The notes under the pieces were generated by a model. The model saw only the letters and a list, made by a program, of their open reading frames with translations, did no database searches and was not told the origin of the DNA. This document shows, one piece after another, positions 9,784 through 43,503 of a stretch of DNA of 64,000 nucleotides. Positions within the stretch are counted from its first letter, which is position 1; the number at the start of each line of letters is the position of its first letter. The position numbers and the translations under genes were made by a program. The stretch spans positions 2,369 through 66,368 of the forward strand of contig JBJESD010000005.1 in NCBI GenBank assembly GCA_051882595.1. The letters are read 5' to 3'. This DNA comes from Oscillospiraceae bacterium (GTDB taxonomy: Bacteria > Bacillota > Clostridia > Oscillospirales > Ruminococcaceae).

Positions 9784-11700
9784 TTATGCATTGTGCTGTT
9801 CAAGATACTCTATATACGACCGCTCCGGAATTGGTTTGGAGTAGTAGTATCCCTGCAGATAATCCACGCCAAGTTCAATCAGCAGGTCCGCCATCTCACG
9901 GTTCTCAACGCCCTCCACCACGATGCCCTTGTCAAGGCTTTTCAGCATCATTACAGTGTGCTTAAGCACGTTCATCGCCTCTTCATTTTCCATTGCCGGC
10001 CACAGAATGCTCTTGTCTATCTTAACAATGGAGAGCGGCAGGCGGATAAGGTAGTTTGCCGTGGAAAAGCCTGTACCGTAGTCATCCATGGAAAAGGACG
10101 AGCCTGCCCGTACAAGTGCGTCCATGGTATTGATAAGCACCTTGTCATTGATGCTGTGCGCAGTTTCGGTTATCTCAAAATTGATGCGTCCCGGCGCGAT
10201 TTTGAACTCTTTCATTATTGCCAGCAGCGTAGCGGACAGGTTTTCCTGCATACATTGGATGGTGGAGAGATTGACCTCGATGTACTCCACTCCAAGGCGG
10301 AAGATGTCGCTGTGGTGCATAAATTCGCATACCTTGCGGAAGATTATTTCTCCGATCTGAACAATAAGTCCGTTGCGTTCGGCAAGCGGAATAAATTCGT
10401 CGGGCGGAATAAAGCCAAGCTCGGGATCAATAAGCCTTACCAGCGCCTCTGCAGAGGTGAACTTGCCCTTTTCGGTGGAATAAAGCGGCTGGAAATATAC
10501 CCTGAATTCATCGTTCTGAATAGCGCGCTTCATGATGTGAACTATCTGATTTTCGCGGTTCTTCTTTCCAAGCGCTTCCGCGGTAGCCTTGATAACCTCG
10601 TTGCTGTCATCCTGACTTCTTTGCTTGAGGCAGAACTCAAGCGCATCCGTAACATCCTCGGGCTTTTCGGCGAAGTCCGGATAGTCGATACTGCACATAC
10701 GCGGAGAGAGCTGAACCTCTGTGCCGTTGATGATGCACGGCTTTGCAAAGTGTGCTTTGATGCGTATCACGGTGCTTTCAAGGTCGCCGGTGAATTCGCT
10801 TATCATAATGGCGTAGCGACAGCCATACAGGTGATAGACATCGCGCGAACCGAACTCCTTCATAAGATATCGGGAGATAGAGTCGATAAGCTCGTTTGCG
10901 TTCTTGACGCCCAGAATGCAGTTGATATACTGGAAGTCATCCGGAACAAACGAAACAACCGTAAACGGTGTTCCCTTTAGCATATGCTTTTCGATAGTCT
11001 TATTAAAAGCATACTGATTAAAGCAGCCTGTCGTCTTGTCGATATAATCGTCCGGATTCTGAAGCGACACATAAACCACAATAAGGTAAAGCGCGCAGGC
11101 AAAGCTCTGAAGCAGCACATTGCTGAAAACAGCCTGCAAAATTATCGCGGCGATAAGCGAAAGATTGAAGATAATAACCGAAACGGTCTGGTACTTGGTA
11201 AGATTGCGGCGGAACTTCACGCATAGCAGGAAGCAGTGGAACAGCATTAATATTGCCAAAATGTAAAGCACCGACATCAGAGGACCGTGACAATAGTTGT
11301 TGTTTTCGTCGAAATAAATCACCCACTTTGTAATCGGTGTGCTAAAAATCAACAGCGCATCCGCCAGTATTACCGCAACCGCAATCAAGCGGTCTAACAA
11401 AGTGGTACGGTTTTCCTTTGTAATGGCAAGTACATACACATAGTACAACACAGCACATCCATTGAACGCTGCAAGATACACCATGTTTGCGGCATAATTA
11501 AGCCAAACGGGAACAGTATCCGAATGACCAATGGTATAAACCGTGGCAAGATCCATTACTGTGGCGAAAAAGTTAGCGCCAAGCATACCTGCATACAGCT
11601 TGTTTGCGTAAGAGGGAAAGTTGCGCCGTATGGCAAGCAGCAAACCAAAAATAAGAATGATAAAGCACGCGGCTATATCATATTCATAAATATACTCCAT
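9784..11700 (-). CDS. Membrane sensor with degenerate GGDEF and intact EAL domain (c-di-GMP phosphodiesterase)
   Basis: The N-terminus is multi-TM. The GGDEF position reads YGCRYA. The EAL signatures are AEALVRL, EVNLS, EITE, DDYGTG, KIDKS, EGVE and QGYY. Confidence 0.85.
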   Translation of the reverse strand: MEYIYEYDIAACFIILIFGLLLAIRRNFPSYANKLYAGMLGANFFATVMDLATVYTIGHSDTVPVWLNYAANMVYLAAFNGCAVLYYVYVLAITKENRTTLLDRLIAVAVILADALLIFSTPITKWVIYFDENNNYCHGPLMSVLYILAILMLFHCFLLCVKFRRNLTKYQTVSVIIFNLSLIAAIILQAVFSNVLLQSFACALYLIVVYVSLQNPDDYIDKTTGCFNQYAFNKTIEKHMLKGTPFTVVSFVPDDFQYINCILGVKNANELIDSISRYLMKEFGSRDVYHLYGCRYAIMISEFTGDLESTVIRIKAHFAKPCIINGTEVQLSPRMCSIDYPDFAEKPEDVTDALEFCLKQRSQDDSNEVIKATAEALGKKNRENQIVHIMKRAIQNDEFRVYFQPLYSTEKGKFTSAEALVRLIDPELGFIPPDEFIPLAERNGLIVQIGEIIFRKVCEFMHHSDIFRLGVEYIEVNLSTIQCMQENLSATLLAIMKEFKIAPGRINFEITETAHSINDKVLINTMDALVRAGSSFSMDDYGTGFSTANYLIRLPLSIVKIDKSILWPAMENEEAMNVLKHTVMMLKSLDKGIVVEGVENREMADLLIELGVDYLQGYYYSKPIPERSYIEYLEQHNA

Positions 11701-13236: not shown

Positions 13237-13430
13237 GATATTCACCTCTTAATTGATTTGATAAGATGATTATAACATTTTTCTAGCTTTTTTTCAAGTG
13301 GGAGTATTTTTGCACCGTCATTATCCTTTTGGAAAATTATTGATAATGATAGTTGATTTTGCCGAGCTACTATGTTATAATAAATATGTATATTATTTCA
13401 CTAATGTCAAAAATGATCCGGAGGAATAGC

Positions 13431-15401
13431 ATGGATTTGTGTTTCAAGTTTCAGATTCTCGCAATCGGCGTGCTGTTAGTTATAATGACAGATTCTCTGT
13501 TCAGCAAAAGGCTGCCGCTGATTTCTACAAGGGCATTCCACCTGTTCTGGGGCGCCTCTATGGTAAATCTGCTGGGAGATATTGCGTCCTACTACACCCT
13601 GACGCATATGGACAGCGTGCCGGAGTGGGCCAACCGACTGGCTCACCAGATATACATAGGCTCGCTTGACGCAATTGTATTTATACTGTTCATATATGTC
13701 TGCCTGCTGTCAGGCGTTCAGCGGCGCATTCCCAAAATACTGATGCTCGGCTTTTCGCTGCCGTTTCTCGTGGCGCTTGCCTTTGCCTTGTTTGCACCCA
13801 TATACTATGTAGCGAACGAGCACGGCGCATATTCGTACGGCCCGATGGTCACTGTATTCTACCTTTCCATTGCTGTATACATAATATCTATCTTTATTAT
13901 TCTTTTCAGAAAAAACAGTGTTTTCAACAGCGACAGCTCAGTTTCGGATGTTATCGCAGACCTTAAGCGCGCAAGGATATCCATTGCCGTAGGTCTTTGC
14001 ATCTGGATCGTGGTTGCACTCGTTCAGTTCATCACAAAATACTGGCTTATCTCCGGAATGGGCGTAGCTCTTATGGTTATGTATGTTTACATAAGATTTG
14101 AAAATCCGCGCGAATACGCCGATTCCGAAACAGGCACGTTCAACCGCCGTGCATTCCATATAATGGTTCCCGAAATGTACGCCAGAAAAAAACCGTTTTA
14201 TCTCGTCAGCTTCTCCCTTGACAATATCATGAGCATCCAGAAAACCATGGGCTATGACATGACGAAAAAAATACTGCGTCAGGCTGCCGATCAGATAATG
14301 TTCGCCGTTCCGGGAATACAGCTTTATCATTCGCGCTCGCATACCCTTACGGCGTTTATAGAGAACAAGGAGGACCTCGACAAGCTTGCCTCGCGAAGCG
14401 AACTGTGGAATTTCAAATGCACCGCCTCGCTGTCCGACGGAACATTCACACCCAGCTATCACCTTACGATACTGGAATGTCCGAAATATGCCGCCAATAC
14501 CGACGAGCTGTACGATACTCTGGATTACTGCCTTTCACAGCCGTCGCTGCGCGGTGAGGGCAAAATTTACTACATCAACGATGAGATAATCAACAGCAAG
14601 AATTACCGCCTTGCTGTTCTCGATATACTGACAAAGGCAGTAAAGGAAAAGGCTTTCACCGTAGTCTACCAGCCGATATATTCCGCGCACAAAAAGCGCT
14701 TTGCCTCGGCGGAGGCTCTGGTGCGCCTTAAGGATACCGAAACAATCGGCTTTATCTCACCCGAGTACTTCATCCCTCTTGCAGAGGAGCAGGGGCTTAT
14801 CGGCGATATCGGAAACATCGTGTTTGAAAAGGTATGCGAATTTGCCGCACGCGAAAAGCTGTGGCAGCTTGGCATCGAGTATATCGAAGTAAACCTTTCG
14901 GGCGTTCAGAGCGTTGACCTCAGCATAGTCGCGACGCTCACCGGTATAATGAAGCGCTACGGCGTGCACCCGGGATTTTTCAATCTCGAAATAACCGAAA
15001 CCGCCTCAATAGACGGCGGTGATATGCTGGTATACAACATGGAGCAGTTCCGCAGGCTCGGCTGCCACTTCTCCATGGACGATTTCGGCACGGGCTACTC
15101 CAATCTGGCGCAGATGGCAAGAGTACACTTCGAGCTTATCAAGCTGGACAAGAGCCTTATCTGGCCATGCTTCGGGGATAGCGACACCGAAGAACCGCGG
15201 ATCATACTTGACAGCTGCATTGACATGATACTGCGGCTGGGCGCAAATATCGTTGCAGAGGGCGTTGAAACCGCCGAACAGGCAGATTTGCTTATCGGCA
15301 AGGGAGTTGAGTACCTTCAGGGATATTACTTCTGCCGTCCCTCAAACGAAACGGATTTCCTCGCGGCAGTGAAGAAGATGCTTGCACAGTCTAACGCCTG
15401 A
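13431..15401 (+). CDS. Membrane sensor with degenerate GGDEF and intact EAL domain, paralogue of 9784..11700
   Basis: GGAGG precedes the ATG at 13431. It has the same architecture and EAL motifs (AEALVRL, EVNLS, EITE, DDFGTG, KLDKS, EGVE, QGYY). Confidence 0.85.
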   Translation: MDLCFKFQILAIGVLLVIMTDSLFSKRLPLISTRAFHLFWGASMVNLLGDIASYYTLTHMDSVPEWANRLAHQIYIGSLDAIVFILFIYVCLLSGVQRRIPKILMLGFSLPFLVALAFALFAPIYYVANEHGAYSYGPMVTVFYLSIAVYIISIFIILFRKNSVFNSDSSVSDVIADLKRARISIAVGLCIWIVVALVQFITKYWLISGMGVALMVMYVYIRFENPREYADSETGTFNRRAFHIMVPEMYARKKPFYLVSFSLDNIMSIQKTMGYDMTKKILRQAADQIMFAVPGIQLYHSRSHTLTAFIENKEDLDKLASRSELWNFKCTASLSDGTFTPSYHLTILECPKYAANTDELYDTLDYCLSQPSLRGEGKIYYINDEIINSKNYRLAVLDILTKAVKEKAFTVVYQPIYSAHKKRFASAEALVRLKDTETIGFISPEYFIPLAEEQGLIGDIGNIVFEKVCEFAAREKLWQLGIEYIEVNLSGVQSVDLSIVATLTGIMKRYGVHPGFFNLEITETASIDGGDMLVYNMEQFRRLGCHFSMDDFGTGYSNLAQMARVHFELIKLDKSLIWPCFGDSDTEEPRIILDSCIDMILRLGANIVAEGVETAEQADLLIGKGVEYLQGYYFCRPSNETDFLAAVKKMLAQSNA

Positions 15402-19567: not shown

Positions 19568-19866
19568 TTAAGCAGCTGCTTTGGTGCCGAGGCGCGCTGC
19601 ACGAAAAAGTCATGATATTCTCACCAAATTGATTTTTGGGGATTTGGTCAATTTTAATGAATTTTGTTAAATAGCCGATAGAATTATGTCAGATGTGTTT
19701 ACATATCTAAAAATATATGATATAATCAAAGTGTAGCGTTTACTATGCCATTTTAAGGCAATTATTCGCCGTAATTTATGTTCCGGGTAATTTATGCCGC
19801 AGAATATTAACATTTATATATTTGTTTATCCGCCCGGCGCGGATGGAAACGGGGGAGTATACACAC

Positions 19867-21786
19867 ATGAAAATCAAAACAATACTTGTTATTGCAGCGA
19901 TGTGCTTCGCTATCATTCCGATGATCATTTATGTTACTTGCGCAAATATCCTTTCAAGCAAGAACGGCGACGCGGAGTTCAATCGGCAGATATCAGAGCT
20001 TGTGCAGAATCAGGTGTACACAATAAATGCGTACCTTGACACCGTTCATGCGCAGACTGCTGCAATTGCAAATATGGCAGAGATAAAGGAAGCTGCTAAA
20101 GGAAAAGCCAACAATGCGGCAGGCAACATCCTTGTTACGCTTGCCGAAACCAACAAGGATATCAACAGCGCAGTGCTGGTGGATTCCAAGGGCGGTCTTA
20201 TCCTCGGCAGAGCACCAACCAATTCGCAGATAGACTTTGAAAAGCTGATTAAGTGCGAGGATGATGTGCTTTATGCTGTCGATACCTCGACAAAACTGAT
20301 GTTCGTCAAAACAAAGGTAGGATCCTCCTCACTGGTGGTGTTCTATAATGTCGCAGCCGATACCTTCCTCTGCAAGGTTCCCGCAAACAGCACCTTCTAC
20401 ACAGAGGGAAGCATCAGAGTAATCGTGCCTGCGCTTAATTCGGAATACATACTCATCAACGCAAGCGACCCCGGCGGAAGTTTTTCCAGATTCTCCGAGG
20501 ATGTCCAGACTCGCATAGCACAGCTTGGCGAGGGTCAGCTTTCCGAGCCCATTCTTTATGATGTAAAGGAAAACAACTTCACCGAAAAGAACATGGAGAT
20601 AATCCAGCGCGTCGGCGGTGCAAACGATCCGGTTATCATCGCAAGCTGCGCAGTCAAGTATGCCGGCGTATACGCCAACAAGGCAGTATCCACTGTAATA
20701 GTAGCTCTTGTTATCCTTGCAATACTCGCAATTGCAGGTGCTGTTACAACCTCCATAATGGTTACCAGACCTCTCGCTACCATTGAGGAAACGCTTATCA
20801 AGATCCATCGCGGCGACCACGAGGCTCGTATTACAACCGTAAGCAACAACGAGTATGGTCAGATCTCCCGTGCTTTCAATAACCTTGTGGACGAAATCGT
20901 AGTTTCCGAGGACAGATACAGAACTATCATAGAGATGTCCGACAATATCATCTTCGAGTGGAACTTCAAGTCCAACGAGGTATTCTTCTCCAATAACTTC
21001 AATAAGAAATTCAGCTATCGTGCTCCGTCCGACCACTTCGCGGACAGCTTCCTGCTTAAAGCAAAGCTCCACAGCGACGATTCAGAGCGCTACAAGGAGG
21101 ACCTTGAAAAGCTCGGCAACGGCGAGGAGTTCAAGGGCAACGAGTACCGTATGAAGAACATCTACGGCGACTTCATCTGGGTTCTTATGAGAACCGCTAC
21201 GCTGCGCGACAAGGAAGGCAACCCCTCCAAGATTGTCGGCGTTATCGTAGATATCGACCGTGCCAAGAAGAGCGAGCAGCAGCTCACAGCCCGTGCAAGC
21301 TATGATTCGCTTACATCCCTTTATAACAGAGAAACCGTTGAGAGCCAGATCAATAACGAGATCGCACTCTCCGAAGCGAGAAAATCCGAAATGGCGGTTC
21401 TGTTTGTTGACGTTGACGACTTCAAGCACTATAACGACCAGTACAGCCATGCGACAGGCGACCAGGTTCTCAAGTTTGTTGCCAGAACAGTCAACAGCGT
21501 TGTCGGCGAATACGGTTTCGCAGGCAGATACGGCGGCGATGAATTCATCGCCTGCATACGCAATGCAGAGCTTAACGACCCTGCACGCGCAGCACAGGAG
21601 ATCATTGCAAGACTTAACGAGGGCTTCAACTGCGACGGCGCTGAGCACCTTAAAATCAGCGTAAGTATCGGTATCGCAGTTATCAAGGATGACTACAACA
21701 CTCAGGTTGAGTTCCTTATCGGTAAAGCGGATGACGCGATGTACTCCGTTAAGAAGAGCGGTAAATCCAATTACGCTTTCATCTGA
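19867..21786 (+). CDS. Sensor diguanylate cyclase (Cache-like periplasmic domain, HAMP, PAS, GGDEF)
   Basis: GGGGGAG RBS. There is a TM-flanked extracytoplasmic domain, a HAMP segment, and an intact RYGGDEF active site. Confidence 0.9.
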   Translation: MKIKTILVIAAMCFAIIPMIIYVTCANILSSKNGDAEFNRQISELVQNQVYTINAYLDTVHAQTAAIANMAEIKEAAKGKANNAAGNILVTLAETNKDINSAVLVDSKGGLILGRAPTNSQIDFEKLIKCEDDVLYAVDTSTKLMFVKTKVGSSSLVVFYNVAADTFLCKVPANSTFYTEGSIRVIVPALNSEYILINASDPGGSFSRFSEDVQTRIAQLGEGQLSEPILYDVKENNFTEKNMEIIQRVGGANDPVIIASCAVKYAGVYANKAVSTVIVALVILAILAIAGAVTTSIMVTRPLATIEETLIKIHRGDHEARITTVSNNEYGQISRAFNNLVDEIVVSEDRYRTIIEMSDNIIFEWNFKSNEVFFSNNFNKKFSYRAPSDHFADSFLLKAKLHSDDSERYKEDLEKLGNGEEFKGNEYRMKNIYGDFIWVLMRTATLRDKEGNPSKIVGVIVDIDRAKKSEQQLTARASYDSLTSLYNRETVESQINNEIALSEARKSEMAVLFVDVDDFKHYNDQYSHATGDQVLKFVARTVNSVVGEYGFAGRYGGDEFIACIRNAELNDPARAAQEIIARLNEGFNCDGAEHLKISVSIGIAVIKDDYNTQVEFLIGKADDAMYSVKKSGKSNYAFI

Positions 21787-35439: not shown

Positions 35440-35835
35440 ATGACAGACAGAGAACTGATCATGAATGCAGGAATACAAAAAAAGTCGTTCGAGCTGTTCT
35501 ATAACGGCGGCTCTATCTGGTGCGAGCACCTCGACGCAATGGGGTGCTGTGCTGACGAGGTAAAAGACAAATTCCTCAACGACTATAAAACATTCAGCAA
35601 GCCATCCATGACATCATTTATGATAATCAATCTTGATAATACAGAGCTTTTTGACGATGTAATATCATGCATTACAGATACAATAATCCACTCTGCAAAA
35701 AGGTATGTAAAAATTGCCTTTGTCGGAATAAAGAAATCAAAGCGCTCTGCATTCCGTACAATTCAGCGGCTGAAAGGCTGTGCAGTGAATTTTTTCGATG
35801 ACTACGAAAAAGCAAAGCAATGGATTTTGCCGTAA
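35440..35835 (+). CDS. Hypothetical small protein
   Basis: GGAGG RBS, 131 aa, coding-like composition. No motif recognised. Confidence 0.55.
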   Translation: MTDRELIMNAGIQKKSFELFYNGGSIWCEHLDAMGCCADEVKDKFLNDYKTFSKPSMTSFMIINLDNTELFDDVISCITDTIIHSAKRYVKIAFVGIKKSKRSAFRTIQRLKGCAVNFFDDYEKAKQWILP

Positions 35836-35867
35836 AATCCTATCTTATCCGATAAAGGAGGAACGTT

Positions 35868-36503
35868 ATGCGACGTGACAGAAAAAAAGCAAGCGCCGAG
35901 ATAATCCGGCTTCTTGCACTGGAATATCCCGACGTAAAGTGCGCACTTATATATACACAGCCGCATGAGCTTCTGATAGCAACGCGGCTTTCCGCCCAAT
36001 GCACCGATAAGCGTGTGAATATGGTTACCCCGGAACTGTTCCGCCGTTTCAACAGCATAGAGGCTTTCGCACAGGCGGATGTCGCCGAGGTAGAGGAGCT
36101 TATCCGAACCTGCGGACTGTTCAAGACAAAGGCGCAGGATATCGTGTCGATGTGCGTAATGCTGCGCGACATCTACGGCAGCAGAGTGCCCGACAGCATA
36201 GAGGAGCTTACAAAGCTTCCCGGTGTGGGCAGAAAAACGGCAAACCTTATCGTCGGCGACCTGTACGGTCAGCCTGCCTATGTGTGCGACACTCATGTTA
36301 TACGCCTCACAAACAGGCTCGGTCTGTCCGACACAAAGGACGCAGGAAAGGTCGAAAAACAGCTTCGCGAGGTAATTCCGCCGGAAGAAAGCCTTAAATT
36401 CTGTCACAGGCTTGTTCACCACGGCAGAGGGGTATGCAGCGCACAGTCCCCAAAATGCGCGGACTGCGTGCTTAAGGACATTTGCAGGTATAAGCACAAC
36501 TGA
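35868..36503 (+). CDS. nth: Endonuclease III
   Basis: HhH-GPD motif LPGVGRKTANLIV...D. The C-terminus has a 4Fe-4S cluster ligand pattern, C-x6-C-x2-C-x5-C. Confidence 0.95.
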   Translation: MRRDRKKASAEIIRLLALEYPDVKCALIYTQPHELLIATRLSAQCTDKRVNMVTPELFRRFNSIEAFAQADVAEVEELIRTCGLFKTKAQDIVSMCVMLRDIYGSRVPDSIEELTKLPGVGRKTANLIVGDLYGQPAYVCDTHVIRLTNRLGLSDTKDAGKVEKQLREVIPPEESLKFCHRLVHHGRGVCSAQSPKCADCVLKDICRYKHN

Positions 36504-36533
36504 CAGCGCCATACAGCGTTTGCGACGGAAAAG

Positions 36534-38360
36534 CTATTCAGCCATGCAGTCCAGTATCAGCGATATCTCTTCCATATAGTCCGGTATGACCTCGCCGTTT
36601 TCTATAAGGCAGTCGCCGATGTGCTCCAGCGCGGCAGAATTAAGCTCCTCGTAAGCCGTTTCGGGGAGAACTCCGCGCTCGCGGCAAAGGCTTTCCGCAC
36701 TGCCGTGCATAAGCGCATTAAGCAGCTCCAGCTGCGGCACATCAAGCGACCGGGCAAGTTGCCGCCAGCCCTCGGGCAGCCCGGAAAAATCATAGCCCGA
36801 TCCGACCTGTGCACAGGCGTTTTCGGTCTGCTCGTCAAACACCTCGTCAACTATCCTTGCGGTTATCTGCTCTATCTCCTCGGTGGGGATGGAGTCCTCG
36901 TATTCCTCGATTATAAGCTTTCTTGCGGTCTGCTCCGCTTCTTCGCGTATCGCCGCAAGGCTTTCTACATTGATCTCAATTTTCGGCGGAGTCTGCGGCG
37001 CAGCCTGCCTTATATCATCTGCGGCAAAATGGTTGCCGCTTTTCTTTTTGCTCTCCTTTTTCGGCGGCATTATGCCGTGGCGGTCGCACCATTCGTTTAC
37101 AGCGTCCGGGATAATGCAGGAAAACGCCTCTTCGCTTGCCGCCTTGTGCAGCTTGCTTCGGTTGGTGAAGTCATCCAGCACAGGCGAAAGATTTGCCGAA
37201 ATGCTGTATCGGAAGCCCATCCGCTTTCTCAGCACCGCCTCTGTGGATTTCAGGATATACCCGATAAGACTGCGGTACGGCGCACACTCAAATCTTTCAA
37301 GGCACGGCTCTCCGCGCTTGGTGCAGTACTGCCCGTATGAGTTGATACGGCAGGCATGAAATCCGTCCATTCTGTCAAGGTCAACAAACGCTCCGCAGAA
37401 CGGCGTCCAGAAATGGTCCTTTCTCGGCTTGCCGCAGATAAGCTCAAACAGCGATATTCCGCGCTCCTTGAAATACTCGTTCATCGAGCGAAGCACATCG
37501 CTAAGCACAGCCTCGAATACAGGCGCGGTTTCCTCGGAGAAGAATATGCTGCCCTTGAGATTATAGGACGAGCAGCCCATAAGATACTCCAGCTTGTTTT
37601 CGTAGTTGCCTGCTTCAAGCTCGCAGATGTCCTTGCCGCAGCTTTCATCCTGCACGGGGAACGCTGCCGCGATATCCGTAAACTCGCCCTCTATCTCGTT
37701 GAACGCGTAAAAATCGCCGAGCCACTGCGGCATGGTTTCGTCAAGCGACGGGCAGAAGCTGCGGCAGTTTTCCCACACGGCGATAAGACGGTCAAACGCG
37801 TCCTGCGACGACAGTACCCCTATTTTGTTCAGCAGCTCGTAGCAATACAGCGTGATGTACGCCTTGTCGGTACGGGCAAACACTCCGCGCCGCACGTCCG
37901 TCCTCCATGTAAAATAGGTGCGCAGCTGCTCGAACGAGAGAGCGCCGTAAACAGGTCTTTCAATGCCGCAGTAAACGCTTCGGTTGAAATCGTCAGCAAC
38001 ATCGCACATATATTCGCCCTGCTTAACGATGCTTACCTCTGCGCACTGCCGGATTGTGAAGCCGCGATAAAGCGTCTGACCCAGCTTTCGCATCTCGCGT
38101 ATCCTATCGGCAATTGGGGCAGTTTCGTCCGGCAGCTCGGGAGCATAAGCAAGCTCCGTTGCTTCGGGCGCAGCGCTGCTGTGACGGGGCGCGTCATAGC
38201 GTATATTGTCACGGGGCGGTATTTTTTCGCCGCGGCTCTCGGCGTCTGCGTTTTCCGTGATATTTTCTATCTTTACGCGGATAATTCTCTGAATTTCTTC
38301 TTGTATTTCTTTTTTCGTCTTCGCTTTGCTGCTTATCAGCAGCTTGAAAAAATCTGACAT
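36534..38360 (-). CDS. TerB-N / TerB-C domain protein
   Basis: GGAGG RBS. The TerB-N-like signature is YGALSFEQLRTYFTWRTDVRRG. After an acidic linker, the TerB-C-like tail reads INVESLAAIREEAEQT...LDVPQLELLNAL...GVLPETAYEELNSAALEHIGDCLIE. Confidence 0.7.
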   Translation of the reverse strand: MSDFFKLLISSKAKTKKEIQEEIQRIIRVKIENITENADAESRGEKIPPRDNIRYDAPRHSSAAPEATELAYAPELPDETAPIADRIREMRKLGQTLYRGFTIRQCAEVSIVKQGEYMCDVADDFNRSVYCGIERPVYGALSFEQLRTYFTWRTDVRRGVFARTDKAYITLYCYELLNKIGVLSSQDAFDRLIAVWENCRSFCPSLDETMPQWLGDFYAFNEIEGEFTDIAAAFPVQDESCGKDICELEAGNYENKLEYLMGCSSYNLKGSIFFSEETAPVFEAVLSDVLRSMNEYFKERGISLFELICGKPRKDHFWTPFCGAFVDLDRMDGFHACRINSYGQYCTKRGEPCLERFECAPYRSLIGYILKSTEAVLRKRMGFRYSISANLSPVLDDFTNRSKLHKAASEEAFSCIIPDAVNEWCDRHGIMPPKKESKKKSGNHFAADDIRQAAPQTPPKIEINVESLAAIREEAEQTARKLIIEEYEDSIPTEEIEQITARIVDEVFDEQTENACAQVGSGYDFSGLPEGWRQLARSLDVPQLELLNALMHGSAESLCRERGVLPETAYEELNSAALEHIGDCLIENGEVIPDYMEEISLILDCMAE

Positions 38361-38389
38361 CTGTTCACCTCCGCAGGTGACGAAACGGA

Positions 38390-39256
38390 TTAGTTAAAGG
38401 TTATCAGCTCTTCCCAGTTTTCGGGCATTCCCAGATGCTCGCGCCTTATAACATCGGCATTTTTGTGAATAAGCCTTGCAAGCGGTGTAACCACCTGAAG
38501 ATTCCAGTTGTTGTGGTCGTGATAAACCTGCTTCATAACGATTATGTAGCCGAAAACGTTGGGAAGCAGCTCGATATCCATTGTGCGCGGAGCTTTCGGC
38601 TCTACGGGGAATGTATTGCCATACAGCCTGTTGTAGTGGGCGCAGTAGTTGCGCAGCTCGTTAAGGCAGAATATCCAGTTATCCAGCTCGGAGCTTGAGC
38701 AGCCGTAGAATTGTTCCGCAAGCTCCTTTTTGTCGGCGTTCTGCATATCCTTGAAGAAGAATGCAAGCGTGCCGAAGCTGAACAGCTCCATTATTACCCA
38801 AAGCGGAAAGTCGCCGCGGTACTTGTTGTTGTAGTGACGCACAAACTCGCGATCCTCGTTCACCTCGACAAGATGCCGTATCTTGGACATAAACGCGTTG
38901 TGGTTATGCCTGAAATCAAAGCTTGAGCTGTTGAGATATCCCAGTGCGCCGTATTTCAGCGAGTGGTAGTTAGATATCGCGGCGCGCAGTGCTATCTCTA
39001 TCTCCTCAAGCGCTGCGATAAGGATGCTTCGCAGCTTTCTGTCGAACTCGTATACCCTGAGGATGTTTTCAAAGGTGGTGCCCTCTTCGTACCTATCCTT
39101 GCTGACGCAGAACGGCTTGAAGTAGTTGGAAAGGCGGAAATAGTTGATGTATTTCAGCGTTTCCTTTGCACGTTCCTCGTCCTCGATGATACAGCCGCGC
39201 TCGCGCAGCTTGTCGATCTGCTGTTGAAGTGTTGCAGGCAGCTTTTTCTTTGCCAT
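38390..39256 (-). CDS. Abi_2 (AbiD/AbiF-like) HEPN-superfamily abortive-infection protein
   Basis: GGAGG precedes the ATG at 39256. The N-terminus YINYFRLSNYFKPF and the LRNYCAHYNRL (R-x4-H) motif are characteristic of Abi_2. Confidence 0.8.
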   Translation of the reverse strand: MAKKKLPATLQQQIDKLRERGCIIEDEERAKETLKYINYFRLSNYFKPFCVSKDRYEEGTTFENILRVYEFDRKLRSILIAALEEIEIALRAAISNYHSLKYGALGYLNSSSFDFRHNHNAFMSKIRHLVEVNEDREFVRHYNNKYRGDFPLWVIMELFSFGTLAFFFKDMQNADKKELAEQFYGCSSSELDNWIFCLNELRNYCAHYNRLYGNTFPVEPKAPRTMDIELLPNVFGYIIVMKQVYHDHNNWNLQVVTPLARLIHKNADVIRREHLGMPENWEELITFN

Positions 39257-39293
39257 GTTGTCCTCCGATCCGGGCGGCACCGCATTGTGCTCA

Positions 39294-40295
39294 TCAATCC
39301 ATCCAGAATACTTCTCGCTCATGTCTGCTTTCTCTTGTCATCAGTGAAGAAATGCTGTGCTTCGGATTTGCGCCATTGTAGCATACATTTACTATCTCTT
39401 CAATTATCGGTGTGTCAATGCTGCGCTCTACAGCAAGGCGGTATGCTATCTTGCTGCTGGTGTAGCCCTCAACCGTGCCCACCTGTGCGACCGCCTCCGC
39501 CGCAGGTGTTCCGCTGCCGATAAGAAAACCTGCGCGGTAGTTCCTGCTGTGCTGCGATGTGCAGGTAACGATAAGGTCGCCTATTCCTGCCATTCCCGTA
39601 AAGGTCTTCCAGTTTGCGCCCAGCGCAACGCCAAGGCGCGTTATCTCGGTCATGCCTCTTGTCATCAGCGCTGCTACGGTATTATCGCCAAGATTCATGC
39701 CTCTGGCGATGCCGCATCCCAGTGCGATAGGATTTTTAAGCACGCCGCCCAGCTCGCAGCCTGCAACGTCATCATTAAGATATATTCTGTATCTCTCGTT
39801 TGAAAGCGTTTGCTGTATATATTTCGCTGTTTCCGTATCATATGCGGCGCACACCTCGGTCGTGGGCACAAGCCTTGCTATTTCCTCTGCATGGCACGGA
39901 CCGGTGATAACTCCTATCTGATTGTCGGGAAGCTCCTCGGCAAGTATCTGCGACAGGCGGTTGCCCGTGTCTGCCTCAAGGCCCTTGCTTACATTGATAA
40001 CAACGGTGCTTTTGTCGATGTGAGCCTTTGCAAGCCTTACAGTATCGCGGTAAAACGGCGAGGGAATAGCCACCACCACCATATCCGCGCCGCTTACGCA
40101 GCTTATGTCCGTGGTAACTCCGAGCGCGTCGGGAAGCTTTACCCCGGGAAGCAGCCTTTTATGCTCGCGCTGAGTGCGCAGCTGCTCTGCCTCCTCCTCG
40201 AACTTTGTCCATGTTATTACCTCGTGTCCGTAGGTGCTGTACAGCACGCCGAGAGCTGTGCCGTATCCGCAGCCGAGTATTGCTATCTTTGCCAT
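39294..40295 (-). CDS. gpsA: NAD(P)H-dependent glycerol-3-phosphate dehydrogenase
   Basis: MAKIAILGCGYGTA Rossmann start and typical GpsA motifs (GVLKNPIALGCG, GDLIVTCTS). Confidence 0.95.
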   Translation of the reverse strand: MAKIAILGCGYGTALGVLYSTYGHEVITWTKFEEEAEQLRTQREHKRLLPGVKLPDALGVTTDISCVSGADMVVVAIPSPFYRDTVRLAKAHIDKSTVVINVSKGLEADTGNRLSQILAEELPDNQIGVITGPCHAEEIARLVPTTEVCAAYDTETAKYIQQTLSNERYRIYLNDDVAGCELGGVLKNPIALGCGIARGMNLGDNTVAALMTRGMTEITRLGVALGANWKTFTGMAGIGDLIVTCTSQHSRNYRAGFLIGSGTPAAEAVAQVGTVEGYTSSKIAYRLAVERSIDTPIIEEIVNVCYNGANPKHSISSLMTRESRHEREVFWMD

Positions 40296-40309
40296 TGCGC
40301 GACCTCCTG

Positions 40310-40972
40310 TTACTTTGATTTTTCGCCCAGCTTCTTTTCAGTGTGGTTAAGAAGCCTCTGTATATTTCCGCGGTGCATATAGATGATGATACCGCCGGTA
40401 AAGCCGGCAACTATCGCATTTGCAATGCCTGCGGCGTCCTTGTCGATGAAGTAAGAGAACATAAGCGCAGTAAACACAAACAATGAGGAAGCAACGCACG
40501 AGCCAAGCGAAACATATCGCGTAATAGCCACAAGAATAATGAATACTCCAAGCAGTATCACAGCACTTCTCCAGTCAAGGGTGAATATCGCAGAGATGGC
40601 AGCAAGCACTCCCTTGCCGCCCTTGAAGCCGTAGTAAACCGGATAGATATGTCCCAAAACCGTCATTAGTACCGACATATAGCCGACCCAGCTCATTCCG
40701 CCTGCCGCGTCGGTGATATCAACGCCGCCGATAAGCAGAAACGAAAACCTTACAGCAAGCACCGCAAGCACCGCCTTAGCAACATCCCCAAGCAGCACAA
40801 TTCCTGCGATTGCCTTTCCCTGCGTGCGCAGCGTGTTTGTAAGTCCGGCGTTTCCGCTGCCCATTGTGCGTATGTCCTTGCCCGTTTTTATCCTTGTGAT
40901 GATTATAGAGGTGTTAATGCCGCCGAGAAGATACGGCACAACAAGCATGATGATATAACAGATCCATTCCAT
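40310..40972 (-). CDS. plsY: Glycerol-3-phosphate acyltransferase PlsY
   Basis: The YLLGGINTS, GSGNAGLTN and FKGGKGV motifs are present, with about 5-6 TM segments. Confidence 0.95.
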   Translation of the reverse strand: MEWICYIIMLVVPYLLGGINTSIIITRIKTGKDIRTMGSGNAGLTNTLRTQGKAIAGIVLLGDVAKAVLAVLAVRFSFLLIGGVDITDAAGGMSWVGYMSVLMTVLGHIYPVYYGFKGGKGVLAAISAIFTLDWRSAVILLGVFIILVAITRYVSLGSCVASSLFVFTALMFSYFIDKDAAGIANAIVAGFTGGIIIYMHRGNIQRLLNHTEKKLGEKSK

Positions 40973-40978
40973 GGTCGT

Positions 40979-41518
40979 TTATTCTGTCCTTTCGGGTGAA
41001 ATGATTTTTATTCCGGGGTTTTTGCCGCGCAGGAATGCCAGCGCGACAGCATTTGTGCCGTAGTCTGTAAACGGCATGGTTATCGGCTTTTTGTATCCGT
41101 TTACCGTAAGCCTGAGACGCGCGCCGTATTTTTCTATCGCCAGTACATCGGAATATCGCAGAAGATAAAGCTTTTCAACACTGTAAAAAACGAAATGGTT
41201 CTCCATGTACCGATGACCGTCAACACATTTTGCGTTAGGGTATTCCGCAAGTATCTCGTTTCGTTCTTCCTCGCGCATTTCATTCAGATGCTTTTTCAGC
41301 TTACGAGGAGTGAAAACGAAGATATCAGCGATCGTCAGCAGCACCATTATTTCAGCAAATACAGCCAGTATGACCAGCAGCCTGCCAAGCGCGGAATCCC
41401 ATCTGCCTGCGTTGATAATGTTTAATACGCAGTGTGTCGGCAGCAGCACTGCCAGACCGACGCTTGAAACGATCATTCCACGGCACTGCCTGCGATGATC
41501 GGATAATATCTGCTTCAT
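40979..41518 (-). CDS. Membrane protein of unknown function inserted between der and plsY
   Basis: The start overlaps the der stop (GTGATG). It has two TM helices and then a soluble beta-rich domain. Confidence 0.6.
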   Translation of the reverse strand: MKQILSDHRRQCRGMIVSSVGLAVLLPTHCVLNIINAGRWDSALGRLLVILAVFAEIMVLLTIADIFVFTPRKLKKHLNEMREEERNEILAEYPNAKCVDGHRYMENHFVFYSVEKLYLLRYSDVLAIEKYGARLRLTVNGYKKPITMPFTDYGTNAVALAFLRGKNPGIKIISPERTE

Positions 41519-42834
41519 CACTCGCCTCTTTCGCGCACCGTTATCTTGATGGGCGTAGCCTCAAGCCCGAATGTATCGCGTATCTGATTTTCTATATATC
41601 TCTGGTAGGAGTAGTGGAAAAGCTCCTTGCTGTTGCAGAAAACCACAAAATTCGGGGGATTTGTGCTCGCCTGAGTCATATAGTAAAGCTTAAGCCGCTT
41701 GCCTTTATCGGAGGGCGGCTGTACCCTTGATGTGGCATAACTCAGCATATCGTTAAGCACACCCGTAGAAATGCGTATGCAGTGCTGCTCGTGCACATAC
41801 TTTATCATATCGAACAGCTTATCCACGCGCTGACCCGTCTTTGCCGAGATGAAAACAAACGGCGCATAGGACATAAAGGAGAAGTCCACCTCAAGCTTTT
41901 TCCTGAACTCGTTCATGGTCTTGTCGGTCTTGTCCTCAACGGCGTCCCACTTGTTGACCGCGATAACGCACGCCTTGCCCTTGTCGTGAGCATAGCCTGC
42001 TACCTTGCTGTCCTGCTCGGTGAAGCCTACGGTCGCGTCGATAACGATTACGCAGACATCCGCCCTGTCCACCGCCATAAGCGCACGCAGCACGCTGAAA
42101 TGCTCGATGTTTTCCGTTACCTTTGCCTTGCGGCGCATACCGGCGGTATCAATGAAGATGAATTTCTCGCCGTTTCTTTCTACCGTTGAGTCGATAGCGT
42201 CGCGTGTAGTGCCTGCTATATCGGATACGATAGAGCGCTCCTCGCCTGCGATGTAGTTGATAAGCGAGGATTTTCCCACATTCGGCTTGCCTATAACGGC
42301 AACCTTTATTGCGTCCTCTTCATAGTCGTCGCCCTCGTCGGGGGGAAGCTGGTCAAACACCGCCTCAAGCAGGTCGCCCGTGCCGTGTCCGTGCACCGAG
42401 GATACCGCGATAGGATCGCCCAGACCGAGGTTGTAGAACTCGTATATCTCGGGCGGCGGCTCGCCGATACCGTCCACCTTGTTTACGGCAAGCACGACAG
42501 GCTTGCCGCTTTTCATAAGCATAGCCGCTACATCGCTGTCGTTCGCCGTTACGCCTGTTGTGATATCCGTGACAAAGATGATAGCGTCCGCACGCTCTAT
42601 CGCAAGCATTGCCTGCTCTCTCATCTGGGCAAGGATAACATCGTCCGTCTTTGGCTCGATGCCTCCCGTGTCTATCAGCATGAACTCCTTGTCCAGCCAT
42701 TCGCACCTGCTGTATATTCTGTCGCGCGTAACGCCCGGCTTGTCATCCACTATGGACAGGCGCTTGCCGACAAGCTTGTTGAATAGTGTGGATTTGCCGA
42801 CATTGGGGCGTCCCACGATTGCTACTACCTGCAT
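41518..42834 (-). CDS. der: Ribosome-biogenesis GTPase Der (EngA)
   Basis: Two tandem G domains (GRPNVGKST and GKPNVGKSS) and a KH-like C-terminus. Confidence 0.97.
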   Translation of the reverse strand: MQVVAIVGRPNVGKSTLFNKLVGKRLSIVDDKPGVTRDRIYSRCEWLDKEFMLIDTGGIEPKTDDVILAQMREQAMLAIERADAIIFVTDITTGVTANDSDVAAMLMKSGKPVVLAVNKVDGIGEPPPEIYEFYNLGLGDPIAVSSVHGHGTGDLLEAVFDQLPPDEGDDYEEDAIKVAVIGKPNVGKSSLINYIAGEERSIVSDIAGTTRDAIDSTVERNGEKFIFIDTAGMRRKAKVTENIEHFSVLRALMAVDRADVCVIVIDATVGFTEQDSKVAGYAHDKGKACVIAVNKWDAVEDKTDKTMNEFRKKLEVDFSFMSYAPFVFISAKTGQRVDKLFDMIKYVHEQHCIRISTGVLNDMLSYATSRVQPPSDKGKRLKLYYMTQASTNPPNFVVFCNSKELFHYSYQRYIENQIRDTFGLEATPIKITVRERGE

Positions 42835-43503
42835 ATATTACATCCTTTCGTTCTTCGTTCAAAATAACCCAAACATAATTATACTATTATAGTATATCAC
42901 GGCAAAGCTATTTTTTCAAGCCAAAACCGCATTTTTCATAAAAAAAGAGAAGAAAACATCACGATGTCAAAAAACCTATAAATATAGCGCGTAGCGAGTA
43001 GAAGTTTTCGCTCAGGTCTTTTGAAAAAGACGGCAGGGTGTGGGGGAAAAACAAGAGTTTTTCCCCCACAAGCAGCTTTATAGTATGTTTCGACTTTTCC
43101 AACTGAACATCCCGACTGCACAGCGAGGGCACAAGACTATATCGCCATATTGTGAATGCTTCCATCGGATTTGCGGGAAAACGGATTGCGTTACAAGCCA
43201 AACGACCCGGGAGTGCAGATTCCCGGGTCGTCCAGCAGTATTGCGCCGCAGTGAAAAATAGGAGGAAAACACTGCGGCAGTGATGTACGCGGAAGTCTTT
43301 GCCTTTCCGCTGCAAAAGGGGCGGCGGAAAACGCGCGATACTGTCCGATCCGGCAGCCGCGTTCTGTCATCGCAGCCGCCGATGATATATGTAAACCGCC
43401 TTAGCGGATGTCTTGTTATGATATTACACCACAATTGTGAAACAACTATATATTTTGTGTGAAAAATAAGCGAAGTTTTAGCGAATAACTGTGAATTCAG
43501 CGC

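Follow-up and report, generated by a model that had tools for sequence, protein, structure and literature searches.

Shango is composed of SngA, a protein with TerB_N and TerB_C domains, the BrxC/D-like ATPase SngB and the DEAD/DEAH helicase SngC (Millman et al. 2022, Johnson et al. 2023). The characterised AbiF proteins are toxic HEPN RNases, which are kept inactive by an upstream non-coding RNA (ncRNA) with abiF motifs (PMC12373285). Here we analyse a stretch of 64,000 nucleotides from an Oscillospiraceae bacterium (assembly GCA_051882595.1, contig JBJESD010000005.1, positions 2,369 to 66,368), hereafter the window, in which an Abi_2 protein of the AbiD/F type and a SngA-like protein are encoded by adjacent genes downstream of der, plsY and gpsA. 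The pair is a new combination of known parts and not a recent insertion, and it is best filed as known parts in a new partnership with an unusual evolutionary behaviour. Such a pair of Abi_2 and a SngA/TerB_N protein is described neither in the HEPN survey (PMC3710099), the Shango papers and the 2025 study of TerB systems, nor in the texts reached by a full-text literature search or in the PADLOC models.

Parts of this arrangement are also found elsewhere. In the HEPN-MNT type VII toxin-antitoxin systems and in RnlA-RnlB, a HEPN RNase is restrained by the protein of the adjacent gene (also PMC3710099). The logic proposed below for the present pair is alike, but the partner is here a SngA-type multidomain protein of 608 amino acids, which is neither a nucleotidyltransferase nor a small antitoxin, and no MNT or RnlB homology was detected in a Pfam search of the locus proteins. 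TerB-family proteins of Bunzi (BnzA) and Dionysus (DinB) have been proposed to be sensors or membrane-surveillance components (2025 study); these proteins and the ter cluster share the Ter-associated domain vocabulary with the SngA-like protein. The canonical TerB domain (PF05099) has no Pfam match in the SngA-like protein, and TerC, TerD, TerZ or pore-forming partners are not present among the annotated neighbours. The locus is not a ter (tellurite resistance) cluster.

The Abi_2 and SngA-like proteins

The Abi_2 gene (38390..39256, minus strand) encodes a predicted RNase of 288 amino acids, which domain, motif and fold place in the AbiD/F family. The protein matches Pfam Abi_2 (E 1.2e-50, model positions 1-183 of 184), PADLOC AbiD (E 3.5e-92) and PHROG 2158 (E 5.9e-63), and its sequence recovers the PDB entry 8vz6 with an E of 2e-28. 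The same entry, the "PbAbiF dimer bound to ncRNA", was found by Foldseek with the AlphaFold2 (AF2) model of the protein (predicted local distance difference test, pLDDT, 91.5; template modelling score, TM, 0.83; E 8e-13). Its identity to the AbiF of phiC2/CD2301 is 32.8%. No NCBIfam model matches either this protein or its SngA-like neighbour.

The HEPN motif R202-N-Y-C-A-H207, of the form R-x4-H and contained in LRNYCAHYNRL, lies at 38636..38653 on the minus strand (R202 at 38651-38653, H207 at 38636-38638). All 77 orthologues have the same R, N, C, A and H in this motif, and in the same set 93 of the 288 positions of the protein are near-invariant. PbAbiF with R210A+H215A has no activity, and the two substituted residues are the structural counterparts of R202 and H207 in AbiFCd (PMC12373285). 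Judged by this conserved motif, the Abi_2 protein is predicted to be a catalytically intact AbiF-type RNase. RNases of this type are proposed ancestors of Cas13.

The window protein thus shares the Abi_2/AbiD profile, the fold and the R-x4-H motif with AbiFCd/RCd22 of C. difficile and with PbAbiF (8vz6). It differs from them in its setting, since its gene belongs to no prophage, plasmid or defence island and is 62-83% conserved across a whole clade. It differs also in its partner: known AbiF has an upstream abiF RNA, while here there is none and the constant neighbour is the 608-amino-acid protein. The abiF RNA model (Rfam RF03085) had no match at E up to 10 in positions 35500-43500, and a Rfam scan of the whole window at the gathering score gave no abiF RNA and no match of any kind in the spacer between gpsA and Abi_2. 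The motif was likewise not found at seven diverse orthologous loci. As a positive control, the same Rfam model detects the RNA before the phiC2 abiF with 37.6 bits. In addition, the spacer (39257..39293, minus strand) has only 37 nt, with a median of 27 nt at orthologous loci, and is therefore too short for an ncRNA gene; it holds a GGAGG ribosome-binding site (RBS) before the Abi_2 ATG. Since the abiF RNA motif is absent from the window and from the seven orthologous loci, the locus is not a type III-like toxin-antitoxin system of the AbiF-ncRNA kind.

The second gene of the pair (36534..38360, minus strand) follows a spacer of 29 nt (38361..38389, minus strand; median 52 nt at orthologous loci) with a GGAGGTG RBS. 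Its product matches the PADLOC SngA model with an E of 4.2e-57 (model positions 63-526 of 528), and hhalign aligned its residues 137-602 to the SngA of a canonical Shango operon on a plasmid (probability 99.6%, E 8e-25). The Pfam architecture of TerB_N followed by TerB_C is common to this protein and the plasmid SngA proteins. The TerB_N core (residues 133-243; 37632..37964, minus strand; E 4.5e-22) is the most conserved part of the protein, with a peak at residues 140-180 and the pattern RPxYGAxSxxQLRTYFTWRT...LYCYELxN, whose columns are invariant in 63 sequences. The TerB_C region (residues 448-598; 36567..37019, minus strand; E 2.5e-12) consists of an acidic linker and a helical C-terminal domain, the end of which is winged-helix-like. 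The first ~65 residues, a helix and a disordered stretch with conserved EKIPPR and ELAYxPE, are outside the alignments to the SngA models and relatives.

The AF2 model of the SngA-like protein (pLDDT 81.9) is folded at residues 80-440 and 465-607 and is without a membrane-spanning segment. Residues 530-607 of the model have the secondary structure H-H-H-H-beta-beta-H, and Foldseek gave for the C-terminus weak matches of ~70 residues to the winged helix-turn-helix domains of ModE and LysR (probability 0.4-0.7). No structure in PDB (best E 0.14) or BFVD (best E 0.26) was matched at E 0.001, so the fold gives no mechanistic lead, and by sequence no relative was found in PDB except one weak, probably chance, match. 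A likeness to DRT9 was considered and rejected. The weak profile match to this reverse transcriptase (9ioa/9nlv, E 0.022, motif RYMYGGLSKSQIKDY) spans residues 44-163 (window ~37872-38231), with R-x-Y-G-x-L-S-x-x-Q shared, and it was taken as chance because DRT9 did not come up when PDB was searched by Foldseek with the full model.

A HMMER search of 1.84 billion representative proteins returned 2143 relatives of the SngA-like protein. Its own orthogroup comprises ~19 representatives at 39% identity or more, and the next relative, at 35%, is still paired with Abi_2. The nearest relative outside the clade described below (34% identity) is a canonical Shango SngA, accompanied by a BrxC/D-type ATPase and a DEAD helicase. 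Relatives on plasmids are only 22-31% identical, and both of those inspected belong to operons of a TerB_N protein, a BrxC/D-type ATPase and a DEAD helicase. From the Shango alignments and this outgroup context, the 608-amino-acid protein is a derivative of Shango SngA. Among its distant relatives, some proteins of 857-1251 amino acids (25-31% identity) have two or three tandem TerB_N domains and then a single TerB_C (P0419, P0423, P0424, P0425, P0431, P0435, P0440, P0442, P0444 and P0454).

The likeness to Shango is limited to this component, which is matched over its full length. SngB, searched by tblastn with two SngB proteins, and SngC, searched in the same way, gave no match in the window or in 87 related loci, and the ten largest open reading frames (ORFs) of the window include no helicase. 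As SngA is present and SngB and SngC are absent from the window and these loci, the locus is not a Shango system. In canonical operons SngB and SngC stand beside SngA, whereas here the Abi_2 HEPN protein is the constant neighbour; the SngA-like gene is, moreover, a core and vertically inherited gene, and not part of a defence hotspot or a plasmid.

An earlier note on this DNA, made from the sequence alone, had already placed an Abi_2 protein with a HEPN-like R-x4-H motif on the same strand directly after gpsA with a 37-nt gap, followed after 29 nt by a 608-amino-acid ORF with its own GGAGG RBS. The raw sequence agrees with this layout and contains the motif, and the Pfam searches bear out the domains it had proposed (Abi_2, TerB_N and TerB_C) as well as its assignments of der, plsY, gpsA and nth. 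The tblastn searches are in line with its remark that a helicase or ATPase partner is lacking. It had also considered the pairing to be one that could not be named, and this holds insofar as the pair has no published description or PADLOC model, but not for the 608-amino-acid protein, which is a full-length homologue of Shango SngA. This homology and the absence of the AbiF-restraining ncRNA are points beyond the earlier note.

Conservation of the pair in an Oscillospiraceae clade

In a scan of one genome per GTDB species, the SngA-like protein was found in at least 383 genomes, of which the best 80 were inspected. Four of the 80 loci begin inside the SngA-like gene, and in the other 76, which have upstream DNA, Abi_2 adjoins the SngA-like gene without exception (76/76). 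The order of der, a small ORF, plsY and gpsA directly upstream is kept in nearly all of these 76 loci, and the genes beyond both ends vary. Most of the genomes are metagenome-assembled genomes with vague NCBI names, for which reason the clade was delimited by gpsA identity (at least 73% against at most 59%) rather than by a named taxon.

Metagenome contigs anchored on gpsA gave the same picture. Both genes are present on all 31 contigs whose gpsA is at least 73% identical and which extend 2.3 kb or more downstream. Many of the gpsA-anchored contigs are from the same few abundant species. Two shorter contigs have Abi_2 at the contig end, and two more (L122, L137) are too short to call. All contigs with a gpsA identity of 59% or less are without both genes, even those having der-plsY-gpsA. 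The conservation of the pairing past this genome, on which the earlier note had made its proposal depend, is therefore found in both samples.

Across related loci, identity to the window is 84-98% for der, 73-88% for gpsA, 63-84% for plsY, 62-83% for Abi_2 and 37-65% for the SngA-like protein. In 64 loci, the mean pairwise identity and the ratio of nonsynonymous to synonymous substitution rates (dN/dS) are, respectively, 0.885 and ~0.06 for der, 0.803 and ~0.09 for gpsA, 0.706 and ~0.11 for plsY, 0.704 and ~0.10 for Abi_2, and 0.475 and ~0.24 for the SngA-like gene; dS is near saturation, so only the ranking of the dN/dS values is reliable. Both genes of the pair are under purifying selection, and the constraint on Abi_2 equals that on plsY. 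Pairwise distances between loci are correlated between the pair and der, plsY and gpsA.

Two departures from the usual order were found. At locus L082 the pair sits after an AI-2E permease gene, with gpsA not nearby. In one subclade (L085 1026-5081; L090 7001-10888; L092 1546-5460; L177) the SngA-like gene is inverted and Abi_2 is still neighbouring; the SngA-like gene converges on gpsA, a 61-amino-acid ORF, Abi_2 and ApbE, with a 3'-end overlap of ~10 nt with the ApbE gene.

The locus does not have the character of a mobile or accessory defence island: the pair is carried by 76/76 and 31/31 loci, its neighbours are housekeeping genes, and there is no phage match. The SngA-like gene had no match in phages and, in plasmids, matched only distant Shango operons, and mobile Abi_2 genes are at most 39% identical to the window Abi_2. 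One exact Abi_2 sequence, 74% identical to that of the window (L174-L176), is indexed in 1059 collection blocks and is also on a 2.9-Mb contig, with a GC content of 56.5% at the locus. From the number of blocks, the clade includes very prevalent species of the human gut, and the one with this exact sequence may be in culture.

Some side observations were made on these loci. In relatives, accessory genes enter the 3' half of the der operon, and the Abi_2/SngA-like pair is not displaced (L029 7425-8330; L048 5806-8861; L056 6272-7819; L057 6345-9100; L137 553-1023). These genes encode an ANT(6) streptomycin adenylyltransferase (Pfam E 1e-99) between gpsA and Abi_2, a GNAT protein with a nitroreductase or a flavin adenine dinucleotide (FAD) oxidoreductase between plsY and gpsA, and a bPH_2 protein after gpsA. 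In L091 (9616-15823), phage terminase, portal, scaffold and tail genes start ~500 nt downstream of the SngA-like gene, so that a prophage abuts the pair. A contig of 2.9 kb with an Oscillospiraceae-type SngA-like gene (L045, CAVIFG010000290.1) is filed under an "Escherichia coli" bin and is almost certainly contamination. An apparent Abi_2/SngA-like fusion, the 877-amino-acid ORF in L077, and an Abi_2 of 353 amino acids in L065 were both discarded as artefacts of read-through across N runs (scaffold gaps). In many Clostridia spoIVA comes after gpsA; a tblastn search for SpoIVA with an approximate query gave no match in 2.2 Mb of loci and was dropped as uninformative.

Functional readings of the pair

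The simplest reading is that the two genes are one functional module, a HEPN RNase regulated by the SngA-like protein, since an AbiF-type RNase without its RNA antidote has here as constant neighbour a SngA-type protein without its ATPase and helicase. We hold this reading tentatively, with a probability of about 0.45. The linkage kept through the translocation in L082 and the inversion in one subclade is counted as support for it. The Abi_2 protein would be an AbiD/F-type HEPN RNase, probably a homodimer like PbAbiF, and the SngA-like protein, a descendant of Shango SngA, would be its physically interacting partner. This partner would take over the role of the abiF ncRNA by keeping the RNase inactive, and may also supply the sensing, as SngA is thought to do for the SngB/SngC ATPase-helicase in Shango. 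The trigger, for which phage infection or a disturbance of nucleic acids or the envelope is most plausible, would be read by the TerB_N/TerB_C protein and would free or activate the RNase; cellular or phage RNA would then be cut, leading to growth arrest and to a presumed anti-phage effect. The module may have been assembled once, 3' of der-plsY-gpsA, in the common ancestor of a large clade of Oscillospiraceae, and have been inherited vertically since.

Several points weigh against this reading. The pattern is unlike that of most defence systems, with no turnover and no association with mobile elements, and the constraint on Abi_2 is the same as that on plsY. In a mirror-tree analysis the partial r between Abi_2 and the SngA-like protein was 0.33, against 0.51 for gpsA and plsY and 0.46 for the SngA-like protein and der, so that the value does not set the pair apart from unrelated genes of the operon. 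No Abi_2/TerB_N fusion was found among the ten long SngA-like relatives (857-1251 amino acids), the mechanism of SngA is not established in Shango itself, and the inspection covers the best 80 of 383 genomes.

The main rival is a housekeeping role, in which the same two-protein RNase, domesticated and no longer used in immunity, would have a physiological trigger and serve routine RNA processing or turnover, for instance in connection with ribosome assembly (Der) or membrane lipid synthesis (PlsY/GpsA); we consider it somewhat unlikely. Every sampled genome of the clade has the pair as a single-copy, syntenic core unit, which is absent outside the clade, Abi_2 and plsY are alike in mean pairwise identity (0.70 and 0.71) and dN/dS (0.10 and 0.11), and co-transcription with der-plsY-gpsA is probable, given the short gaps without a terminator-like site. 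The lack of a close SngA-like copy on phages and plasmids, the low identity of mobile Abi_2 genes and the single exact Abi_2 sequence in 1059 blocks and on the 2.9-Mb contig fit this role as well. HEPN RNases with housekeeping functions, such as Las1, Ire1 and Swt1, do exist, and they are counted for this rival. Swt1 has been classed with Abi2 (PMC3710099). On the other hand, experiments have placed both families solely in defence or toxin settings, and the SngA-like protein has a genuine Shango component as its nearest outgroup. L082 and the inverted subclade show that the pair does not depend on the der-operon context, and the data suggest no specific substrate or pathway. A further reading is that of a domesticated immune module, whose Shango-derived SngA-like sensor and AbiF-type HEPN RNase, with the protein replacing the RNA antitoxin, would be a core, operon-embedded regulator linking RNA cleavage to ribosome assembly or membrane biogenesis. 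We regard this last reading as unlikely.

Two further explanations seem quite improbable to us. The genes could be independent neighbours by descent, a stand-alone AbiD abortive-infection gene beside an orphan and possibly functionless remnant of Shango. PADLOC indeed treats AbiD as a family of its own, its SngA model is matched here without SngB and SngC, and in the inverted subclade the opposite strands, with the ApbE gene between, mean that the two genes share no transcript. A remnant would decay, yet more than 80 species have an undamaged SngA-like ORF of full length, with dozens of invariant residues and a dN/dS of 0.24; adjacency was also kept through one translocation and one inversion, and the Abi_2 gene is without the RNA antitoxin motif of the characterised AbiF. 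The pair might alternatively be a selfish addiction module of a HEPN toxin and a SngA-like antitoxin, fixed by chance in the der operon, whose loss would be lethal and which would give no benefit to the host. AbiF does act as a toxin that its cognate antitoxin neutralises, the coupling of the two genes is tight, with an RBS for each, and the pair is kept without exception. Chromosomal toxin-antitoxin modules are normally patchy, multi-copy and mobile, whereas this pair is single-copy, without a paralogue in the window, and syntenic across hundreds of species. The catalytic motif stays intact even where the identity of the SngA-like protein falls to 33-35%, and a multidomain antitoxin of 608 amino acids with a conserved core would be atypical.

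The earlier note had read the pair as a candidate conflict module, wedged between a housekeeping operon and nth with the footprint of an accessory insertion. Both domain families are associated with defence, the GC content dips slightly (0.46) around 38250-38749, and the 3' part of the operon accepts ANT(6), GNAT and nitroreductase genes in relatives, all of which would suit an insertion. The footprint does not stand, however, since the pair is a syntenic, single-copy and clade-wide part of the der operon, under purifying selection as on plsY. The same gene string is found in relatives with der at 84-98% and SngA-like proteins at 37-65% identity and with differing flanking genes, the distances of the pair track those of der, plsY and gpsA, and every gpsA-anchored contig of the clade long enough to call carries the pair. 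The earlier note had reported no repeats or integrase, and none is present among the annotated neighbouring genes, which also include no helicase or ATPase partner. For this genome, a recent insertion is refuted, and what is left is at most a single ancient acquisition by the clade's ancestor.

Defence-type genes that behave as core housekeeping genes are rare, and this pair does so as a single-copy, syntenic unit in hundreds of species. It may be an innate immune module of unusual stability in abundant gut commensals, or else a case of domestication. Here SngA is separated from its ATPase and helicase and tied to another, well-understood effector, and the pair offers a simpler, two-protein case for SngA sensing and signalling. 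An AbiF-type lineage in which the ncRNA is lacking and a protein neighbour is constant suggests that there is a second mode of control. If the domesticated module were confirmed, SngA would be a portable sensor or regulator able to drive unlike effectors, an ATPase-helicase in Shango and a HEPN RNase here. In practice, automated defence annotation will label the locus "AbiD" in every genome of the clade, which will inflate the counts of defence systems.

Layout of the locus and neighbouring genes

The gene string lies on the minus strand and begins with the GTPase gene der (engA; 41518..42834), whose product has two Pfam MMR_HSR1 domains and a KH_dom-like domain. It is followed by an ORF of 180 amino acids with hydrophobic N-terminal stretches (40979..41521), of unassigned function and without a match in Pfam or NCBIfam. 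This ORF is fast-evolving and is found at the same position in relatives with 24-50% identity; in some of them (L090, L092) two ORFs of this type lie in tandem. The glycerol-3-phosphate acyltransferase gene plsY (40310..40972; Pfam G3P_acyltransf, E 5.9e-45) and the NAD(P)H-dependent glycerol-3-phosphate dehydrogenase gene gpsA (39294..40295; Pfam NAD_Gly3P_dh_N and NAD_Gly3P_dh_C) complete the string before the pair.

From their spacing, the Abi_2 and SngA-like genes are probably co-transcribed with der-plsY-gpsA. No intrinsic-terminator-like site was found in the 37-nt or the 29-nt gap, and a sigma-70-like site within the 3' end of gpsA (39375-39418) is a candidate internal promoter. A longer Abi_2 ORF from 39322, overlapping gpsA, is unlikely to be used, because the orthologues start at the Met of 39256.

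The 3' boundary is marked by the convergent endonuclease III gene nth (35868..36503, plus strand; Pfam HhH-GPD and EndIII_4Fe-2S), which is 30 nt from the end of the SngA-like gene. This downstream neighbour is not conserved, and the genes 3' of the pair vary among related loci. Elsewhere in the window, three large cyclic di-GMP signalling proteins are encoded within 12 kb, at 9784-11700 (minus strand), 13353-15401 (plus strand) and 19822-21786 (plus strand); two are EAL-domain proteins and one has a HAMP-PAS-GGDEF architecture.

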